Assembly (NCBI RefSeq): GCF_055900595.2
Contig: NZ_CM148325.1
Length of the DNA: 64,000 nt
Direction: 5' to 3' (one strand)
Position 1 is the stretch's first letter. Each line of letters starts with the position of its first letter. Made by a program: the position numbers and the translations under genes. The notes beneath the pieces were generated by a model that saw only the letters and a program-made list of their open reading frames with translations, was not told the origin of the DNA and ran no database searches. This document shows positions 48,856 to 49,237 of the stretch, piece after piece.

Positions 48856-48902
48856 ACCTTACCTCATCAATCGCTTGTAGTTATATGTTGTGTTGTGCAC
48901 AT

Positions 48903-48942
48903 CTATCCGTTTAGACGTCCAGATGTAAAGATGAAGGAAAAG
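48903..48942 (-). promoter_or_regulatory. MetJ operator (tandem met boxes) upstream of metF
   Basis: Reverse complement contains TTTACATCTGGACGTCTAAACGGATAGATG with repeated AGACGTCT-like 8-mers. Confidence 0.7.
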
Positions 48943-49237
48943 CTGAAGGGCGTCAACCGAAAAATGACCAATGATGGTGAGGAAAAATCAGGGAAGATGA
49001 AAAAAACTCATCTTAATTAGAGGTAATAAAGAGATTTCTTTATAGCGCAATCAACCTCACTCGTTTTGACTGATATACAGGCAACACAACGGCACCTGTT
49101 CTCATTCGAAAAACAACGCCCTGCCACCAGATGGTGATGCTAAAGCATCTGATTCGGCCTGCGCTCTCGTGTAGGCCGAATACAGAATCTGCGAAATCAA
49201 CTGGTAACAAACAGTAGAGTCAACTCAGTGCGTACTT

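Follow-up and report, generated by a model that had tools for sequence, protein, structure and literature searches.

The window, which is the whole 64,000-nt stretch of DNA analysed here (contig NZ_CM148325.1 of assembly GCF_055900595.2), has the following gene order when read along its minus strand: metB, metL (56650-59082), a 7.6-kb segment, metF (47965-48855) and katG. The segment encodes five proteins: an UshA-like nucleotidase (nucleotidase-1), a 375-aa Cys-rich protein, two further nucleotidases (nucleotidase-2 and nucleotidase-3) and a Tsx-like channel. The interval of interest, 48856-49237, corresponds exactly to the spacer that separates the nucleotidase-1 stop codon from the metF ATG, both genes being co-directional on the minus strand. 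It is bounded by position 48855, the A of the metF ATG, and by position 49238, the first base of the nucleotidase-1 stop codon. For metF we used the RefSeq annotation of E. coli strain Z0117EC0005, which is 100% identical to the window. The features of the locus are as follows:

47965-48855, minus strand: metF coding sequence, 296 aa, ATG at 48853-48855 (ORF list and RefSeq annotation of Z0117EC0005)
48897-48936, minus strand: MetJ operator of five tandem 8-bp met boxes (consensus match, identity to K-12, alignment)
48951-48956, minus strand: TTGACG, a -35-like hexamer of the putative metF promoter (TTGACGCC is invariant in 7 of 7 aligned contexts)
48978-48990, minus strand: proximal MetR-type box, TGATTTTTCCTCA, 135 bp upstream of the metF ATG
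48998-49010, minus strand: distal MetR-type box, TGAGTTTTTTTCA (plus strand TGAAAAAAACTCA), 155 bp upstream of the metF ATG
49005-49011, no strand: left breakpoint between the K-12-type and segment-type haplotypes, set between 49010 and 49011; strict identity ends at 49005
49011-49237, no strand: segment-specific spacer (3' flank of nucleotidase-1), 227 bp, with no similarity to K-12 intergenic DNA
49152-49181, no strand: palindrome ATTCGGCCT-N12-AGGCCGAAT, with a plus-strand stem that extends over 49148-49186
49238-50797, minus strand: nucleotidase-1, UshA-like metallophosphatase/5'-nucleotidase (Pfam PF00149 and PF02872, NCBIfam)
50924-52051, plus strand: 375-aa Cys-rich protein, divergent partner of nucleotidase-1
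52281-53834, plus strand: nucleotidase-2 (Pfam)
53869-55494, plus strand: nucleotidase-3 (Pfam)
55573-56433, plus strand: Tsx-like channel gene (Pfam)
56611-56640, no strand: bidirectional terminator-type hairpin AACAAAAGCTGGCA..TGCCAGCTTTTGTT between the convergent tsx-like and metL genes
56650-56652, minus strand: metL stop codon and right segment breakpoint; TAG here, TAA in K-12, with K-12 homology resuming at 56651

The metF-proximal 155 bp of the spacer (48856-49010) hold the five met boxes, the invariant TTGACG and two MetR-type boxes 20 bp apart. This is the complete metF control region, and it is nearly base for base the same in genomes that lack the segment. A MetJ operator comprises at least two tandem 8-bp repeats resembling AGACGTCT beside a met promoter, and such an array is present at 48897-48936. 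Its boxes read CTTCATCT TTACATCT GGACGTCT AAACGGAT AGATGTGC on the minus strand and agree with AGACGTCT at 4, 5, 7, 5 and 5 of 8 positions, respectively. All five are the same as in K-12 and near-invariant across seven enterobacterial contexts. The original prediction of intact met boxes upstream of metF is thus borne out, with coordinates (48903-48942) that were about 6 bp off. Five met boxes have been described for metF (PMC3274233).

The seven contexts were compared in an alignment of the 215 bp upstream of metF, and comprise the two E. coli segment alleles, K-12, Kluyvera ascorbata (L017) and three enterobacterial contigs (L019, L021 and L026; metF 84-86% identical). Conserved elements are the ribosome-binding region, the met boxes, TTGACGCC, a box of the form TGAN-N5-CTCA at -135 and a box of the form TGA(A/G)-N5-TTCA at -155. 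The TTGACG at 48951-48956 is probably the -35 element of the metF promoter, as suggested by its invariance; a simple promoter scan did not call the full promoter at this site. A 167-aa ORF on the plus strand (48517-49020) runs antisense to the 5' end of metF and its control region, and a "hypothetical protein" is annotated at the metF upstream match in segment-free genomes. This ORF is probably spurious.

MetR is reported to bind the metF promoter, as detected by DAP-seq, and to repress metF (PMC10505187), and its consensus is TGAA-N5-TTCA (PMC13393422, PMC5002191). The boxes at 48998-49010 and 48978-48990 each have one to two mismatches over the eight specified consensus positions. Matches with at most one mismatch are common by chance, and the 64 kb contain 44 of them where 31 are expected. 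Because individual matches are so frequent, support for the MetR-type boxes comes from their conserved position. The form TGAN-N5-CTCA occurs at the position of the proximal box in six of the seven contexts. The distal form, TGA(A/G)-N5-TTCA, is located at -154 or -155, also in six of seven; the position is kept in five other enterobacterial contexts, and the box is a perfect consensus in K-12, L026, L017 and L019. From this pattern, the upstream limit of the metF control region would be a MetR site. A third MetR-type match, TGAAAAAAGCTCA, lies on the plus strand at 48842-48854 and overlaps the metF start codon; on the minus strand it reads ATGAGCTTTTTTCA, similar to the box at the junction, ATGAGTTTTTTTCA.

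In a blastn comparison of the K-12 metL-metF region with the window, identity is 248/250 (99%) over 48756-49005, starting inside metF. Past 49005, ungapped comparison (blastn and MAFFT) gives two mismatches at 49006-49007 and a common TCA up to 49010, after which there is no alignment. The junction had been predicted to lie within roughly 200 bp, between the met boxes and the palindrome, and base-level alignment with K-12 had been proposed as the check. That alignment places the breakpoint between 49010 and 49011, exactly at the outer edge of the distal MetR-type box and 155 bp ahead of the metF ATG. Above -155, the different contexts cannot be aligned, and the sole pair that does align is that of the two E. 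coli segment alleles. Conservation stops at this point whether the neighbour is a nucleotidase gene, a LysR gene or the metL terminator of K-12. The E. coli breakpoint therefore coincides with the upstream limit of the metF control region. As conservation upstream of metF ends at -155 in every lineage compared, the junction is the upstream limit of functional constraint on metF and not a site-specific insertion site.

The segment is common in E. coli. It occurs with the same left junction in 1831-1832 of 5426 complete genomes (34%), each with a single copy of the spacer, and in the approximately 3590 genomes without the segment the match stops at 49005 (query positions 1-306). There are two spacer allele classes, one of 15 genomes at 98% identity or more, which is the window's own, rare allele, and one of 1816 genomes at about 88%. 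Two of 1832 spacer copies are on plasmid-typed records. For the Cys-rich protein, the copy in the window shares only 72-73% identity with the common E. coli allele and 85% with its Pseudocitrobacter cyperus counterpart; for nucleotidase-1, identity to the common allele is 91%. From these values, the island alleles are mosaics that have been exchanged between genera. The flanks (36473-64000) differ from K-12 by about 4.3% over 20 kb, a high value for E. coli. We considered an ancient balanced haplotype and rejected it, because divergence does not climb towards the segment and stays at about 4.3% throughout the 20 kb. Strain HS-02 appeared to carry a third, 1.1-kb allele (L006 8741-9887). This metL-metF spacer is C/T-rich, of low complexity and has a poly-T run of about 45 nt, and is almost certainly an assembly artefact.

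At the right end, the metL stop codon marks the breakpoint. The hairpin at 56611-56640 begins 10 nt past this codon and has perfect 14-nt arms (dG -19.7 kcal/mol). A second hairpin, CACCACCTCC-GCA-GGAGGTGGT, lies at 56580-56601 in the right end of the segment, and also occurs between two nucleotidase genes of a kdsA-chaA cluster (L029 4671-4693). G+C content is mosaic, at 0.42-0.50 for the left gene pair and 0.34-0.46 for the three genes on the right (52281-56433).

In place of 49006/49011-56649, K-12 has 193-198 bp of unrelated DNA that contains its own hairpin and canonical terminator. This DNA did not match any of the loci fetched for comparison, except for a 19-mer at the MetR box in L026 and L027. 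Since K-12 carries unrelated DNA instead of an empty site, the haplotypes differ by replacement and not by clean insertion. The features expected of an integrative island or transposon are also missing: we identified no integrase or transposase among the five segment ORFs (Pfam, NCBIfam), and searches for terminal inverted or direct repeats and target duplications, which compared the left end with the right end and also with the 3' flank of the 375-aa gene, scored the same as shuffled sequences.

Genes homologous to the left half of the segment are found in other genera. Kluyvera ascorbata, L019 and L026 have the pair of nucleotidase-1 and the Cys-rich gene in the metL-metF interval, and L021 retains nucleotidase-1 at this site with a truncated remnant of its partner. 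The pair occurs at other sites in Enterobacter and Cronobacter and in a kdsA-chaA cluster that has four nucleotidases and a Tsx gene. The Cys-rich gene is divergent to nucleotidase-1 in every context seen, and two contexts have truncated remnants at its position. Since Kluyvera and other genera have this two-gene left half in the metL-metF interval, the K-12 arrangement may be a derived, deleted state and not an "empty site". The left junction of the nucleotidase block is real, and its origin by insertion is doubtful, given the unrelated DNA in K-12 and the adjacency of nucleotidase and metF genes elsewhere. The most economical scenario from these gene arrangements is that an old two-gene resident of the metL-metF interval would have gained nucleotidase-2, nucleotidase-3 and tsx, and been lost and replaced in K-12-like lineages.

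Two side observations concern related loci. An E. coli-like contig from a metagenome-assembled genome labelled "Citrobacter sp." (L011 1-4544) is 91-96% identical to the window and has the Cys-rich gene and nucleotidase-1 alone between metL and metF, with the 3' end of the Cys-rich gene overlapping that of metL. The 13-mer GTTTTTCGAATGA occurs at 49102-49114 and at L016 10664-10676, in the 3' flank of an Enterobacter nucleotidase-1 orthologue whose genomic context is unrelated to metF; the flanks are otherwise unalignable.

Nucleotidase-1 is predicted to be a periplasmic UshA-like nucleotidase. Its 375-aa partner has no Pfam family and no sequence relative in the PDB, and an AlphaFold model built from 7 sequences (pLDDT 46) was too poor for a fold search. 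The protein has eight invariant Cys residues, and D145, D202, H227/H229 and H247-E248-C249 are also invariant. Its family forms about 275 clusters, in which all named members are from Enterobacteriaceae, and bears the name "cytoplasmic protein". The only match to a known domain is a sub-threshold one, to the zinc-binding (zinc-ribbon) domain of IS1/IS1595, and this is the sole hint of mobility at the locus. One could read it to mean that nucleotidase-1 and the 375-aa protein together descend from an IS1-like transposase, as a unit that is domesticated or still mobile and has repeatedly been placed or swapped in the metL-metF interval, right against the metF MetR box. The palindrome, whose G.T pairs favour one strand, would then be a strand-specific DNA or RNA element of this unit and not a passive mRNA hairpin. 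We consider this very unlikely.

The palindrome was predicted at about 49150-49183 and is present there. Its 9-nt arms at 49152-49160 (ATTCGGCCT) and 49173-49181 (AGGCCGAAT) are 100% complementary and 12 nt apart. It was also said to precede the first island gene, which is true only along the plus strand; the gene is on the minus strand, and the palindrome lies downstream of its 3' end, beginning 57 nt past the stop codon. Only 1.9% of 2000 dinucleotide shuffles of the 382-bp interval contained a perfect inverted repeat this long (at least 9 bp, spacer of 3-20 nt). Folded as a 44-nt hairpin, the minus strand gives -20.3 kcal/mol (z = -4.8) and the plus strand -27.6 kcal/mol (z = -7.7). By these shuffle and folding statistics, the palindrome is modestly above chance. 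The plus-strand stem reaches 17 bp, and its four non-Watson-Crick positions are all G.T on the plus strand and A.C on the minus strand. A permissive Rfam scan of 48700-49400 returned only noise (E above 5), and small ORFs in the spacer (20-56 aa) have no support.

The palindrome had been described as REP-like and as a possible mark of the insertion point. It is indeed extragenic, as REP elements are, and its right arm with the 5' neighbouring bases (GTAGGCCGAATACA) agrees with the REP head GTAGGCCKGATAAG at 11 of 14 positions. Copy number, architecture and position all refute this identity, and a REP/BIME-type repeat or remnant marking the site of island insertion is hardly credible. The 1832 genomes have one copy each, and the 64-kb window contains no second match at up to 3 mismatches. 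A scan for the exact stem in one genome for each of 100,044 species (298 Gb) gave 9 hits, roughly the chance expectation; no hit was multi-copy, and the sole related one was in an E. coli-like contig. In the REP layout, GTAG stands 5' of an imperfect palindrome GCC(G/T)GAT...ATC(C/A)GGC. The stretch GTAGGCCGAAT resembles a REP head, yet its partner arm is upstream of GTAG, on the opposite side to that in the genuine REPs of the window (33002, 43602 and 28128), in which GTAG is followed by stem, loop and stem. These canonical REP/BIME elements (33002-33040, 43602-43615 and 28128-28141) served as positive controls. As for the insertion point, the palindrome is 141 bp away from the breakpoint, inside segment-specific DNA. 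Nor does it belong to the conserved metL terminator region of K-12, the outcome named at the outset as counting against a junction role, since K-12 lacks it.

The other suggested role was that of an intrinsic terminator that protects metF from transcription of the nucleotidase gene. Place and orientation are right, as the palindrome forms a stable G+C-rich stem-loop past the stop codon of a gene that runs in the same direction as metF. In K-12, a canonical terminator occupies the corresponding position ahead of the metF promoter; the L021 orthologue is followed by a canonical terminator with a related stem core; and our scan found no alternative terminator-like site between the nucleotidase gene and metF. 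However, the U-rich tract that should stand 3' of the stem is missing on both strands. The minus-strand tail, CAGATGCTTTAGCAT, has 3 U in its first 8 nt and a tail score of 0.75-1.8, whereas the terminators of L021 and K-12 metL score 4.3-4.6. Scans for promoters and terminators gave zero hits in the spacer on either strand. Shielding of metF by an intrinsic terminator therefore finds no support in the sequence and is improbable; the palindrome may have a weaker role as a 3' end or pause site.

Comparison with other genera points in this second direction. The E. coli spacer has no homology to the 3' flanks of nucleotidase-1 orthologues in other genera. Nonetheless, a non-homologous hairpin (-14 to -32 kcal/mol) is found 6-85 nt past the stop codon in 7 of 8 of these flanks. 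The eighth, in Cronobacter, has no hairpin, and the next gene is only 54 nt away. The hairpin in L021 has the same CGGCCT/AGGCCG core and is the only one among the orthologue hairpins to be followed by a canonical U tract. Hairpins that recur at the same position without sequence homology suggest a stem-loop at the mRNA 3' end.

The four G.T positions, which strengthen the hairpin on the plus strand, do not fit a role on the mRNA strand. The palindrome might instead act on the plus strand or as duplex DNA, for example as a structured antisense RNA, a strand-specific DNA hairpin or a protein operator (9-N12-9). The length, stability and z-score of the plus-strand hairpin, and the fact that 4 of 4 non-Watson-Crick positions are G.T on this strand, speak for this reading. 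But the plus strand has no promoter-like site or U tract and no Rfam family, and a 4/4 G.T bias has p of about 0.06-0.12 and may reflect transition bias. We know of no candidate protein that might bind the palindrome. We regard action on the plus strand or as duplex DNA as quite improbable.

A further explanation is that the palindrome has no function and is simply neutral, in a spacer that evolves fast. Neither arm differs between the two allele classes, although their spacers are about 12% diverged, and such conservation is not significant alone (0.88^18, or about 0.1). The ST95 strain IHE3034 tolerates a mutation in the stem, one C>T in a palindrome arm that leaves an A.C mispair in the mRNA-strand hairpin. 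Outside E. coli there is no conservation of the spacer, and the 64-kb window contains 60 inverted repeats with 9-nt seeds. Against this stand the scarcity of perfect 9-bp inverted repeats in shuffles of the interval and the recurrence of hairpins at this position behind orthologous genes. A functionless palindrome is unlikely on balance.

We consider the palindrome most likely to be a single-copy, G+C-rich stem-loop in the predicted 3' untranslated end of the nucleotidase-1 mRNA. Such a hairpin could block 3'-exonucleases or cause pausing; lacking a U tract, it would at best be a weak terminator. What insulates metF would then be weak or factor-dependent termination, together with metF's own control by MetJ and MetR. 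For the reading as a whole, in which the interval is made up of the metF control region, a junction at its functional limit and a 3'-end hairpin of the nucleotidase mRNA, we estimate a probability of roughly 0.5.

The analysis fixes both ends of a common presence/absence polymorphism of E. coli to within 5 bp. The metF control region, including the probable distal MetR box, is intact in both haplotypes, and the distal MetR-type box differs between them by one half-site base. Carriers of the segment lack the canonical terminator found just ahead of the metF promoter in K-12, so that read-through from the nucleotidase gene into metF is possible. Such read-through, if it occurs, would bypass control by MetJ and MetR at initiation.

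All features of the interval belong to known kinds. Compared with the metF control region of E. coli and Salmonella, the same region is present at 48856-49010, with a single difference from K-12 before 49005 (at 48944) and two further mismatches within the distal MetR-type box. This box is TGAG-N5-TTCA in segment carriers and TGAA-N5-TTCA in K-12, and is followed upstream by the nucleotidase 3' flank in carriers and by the metL terminator in K-12. Like intrinsic terminators such as that of K-12 metL (GTCCGGT..ACCGGAT-TTTCTTTTTCTT), the palindrome is a stable stem-loop that closely follows a stop codon and lies shortly before the metF promoter, but it is without the U tract that is a defining feature of that class. 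With the REP/BIME elements of E. coli it shares the character of an extragenic, G+C-rich palindrome whose right arm is like the REP head GTAGGCC(G/T)GAT. Unlike these elements, it is single-copy, has GTAG inside the stem and not 5' of it, and has no downstream partner of the ATCCGGC type.

The segment itself is already known. It was published as "GR 31 metL..metF" in ExPEC/APEC strains in the comparative genomics of BEN2908 (PMC12928451). GR 31 is at the same locus in ExPEC reference strains, is about 7.8 kb long and encodes a Tsx-like channel and three UshA-like nucleotidases. That description has four ORFs and does not include the 375-aa Cys-rich protein, the mapping of the junctions or the palindrome. 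The window differs from it in having the rare, diverged allele found in 15 genomes. What is added here is small: the coordinates of the junctions, the coincidence of the left junction with a MetR-type box, and the recognition that the palindrome is not a REP element.
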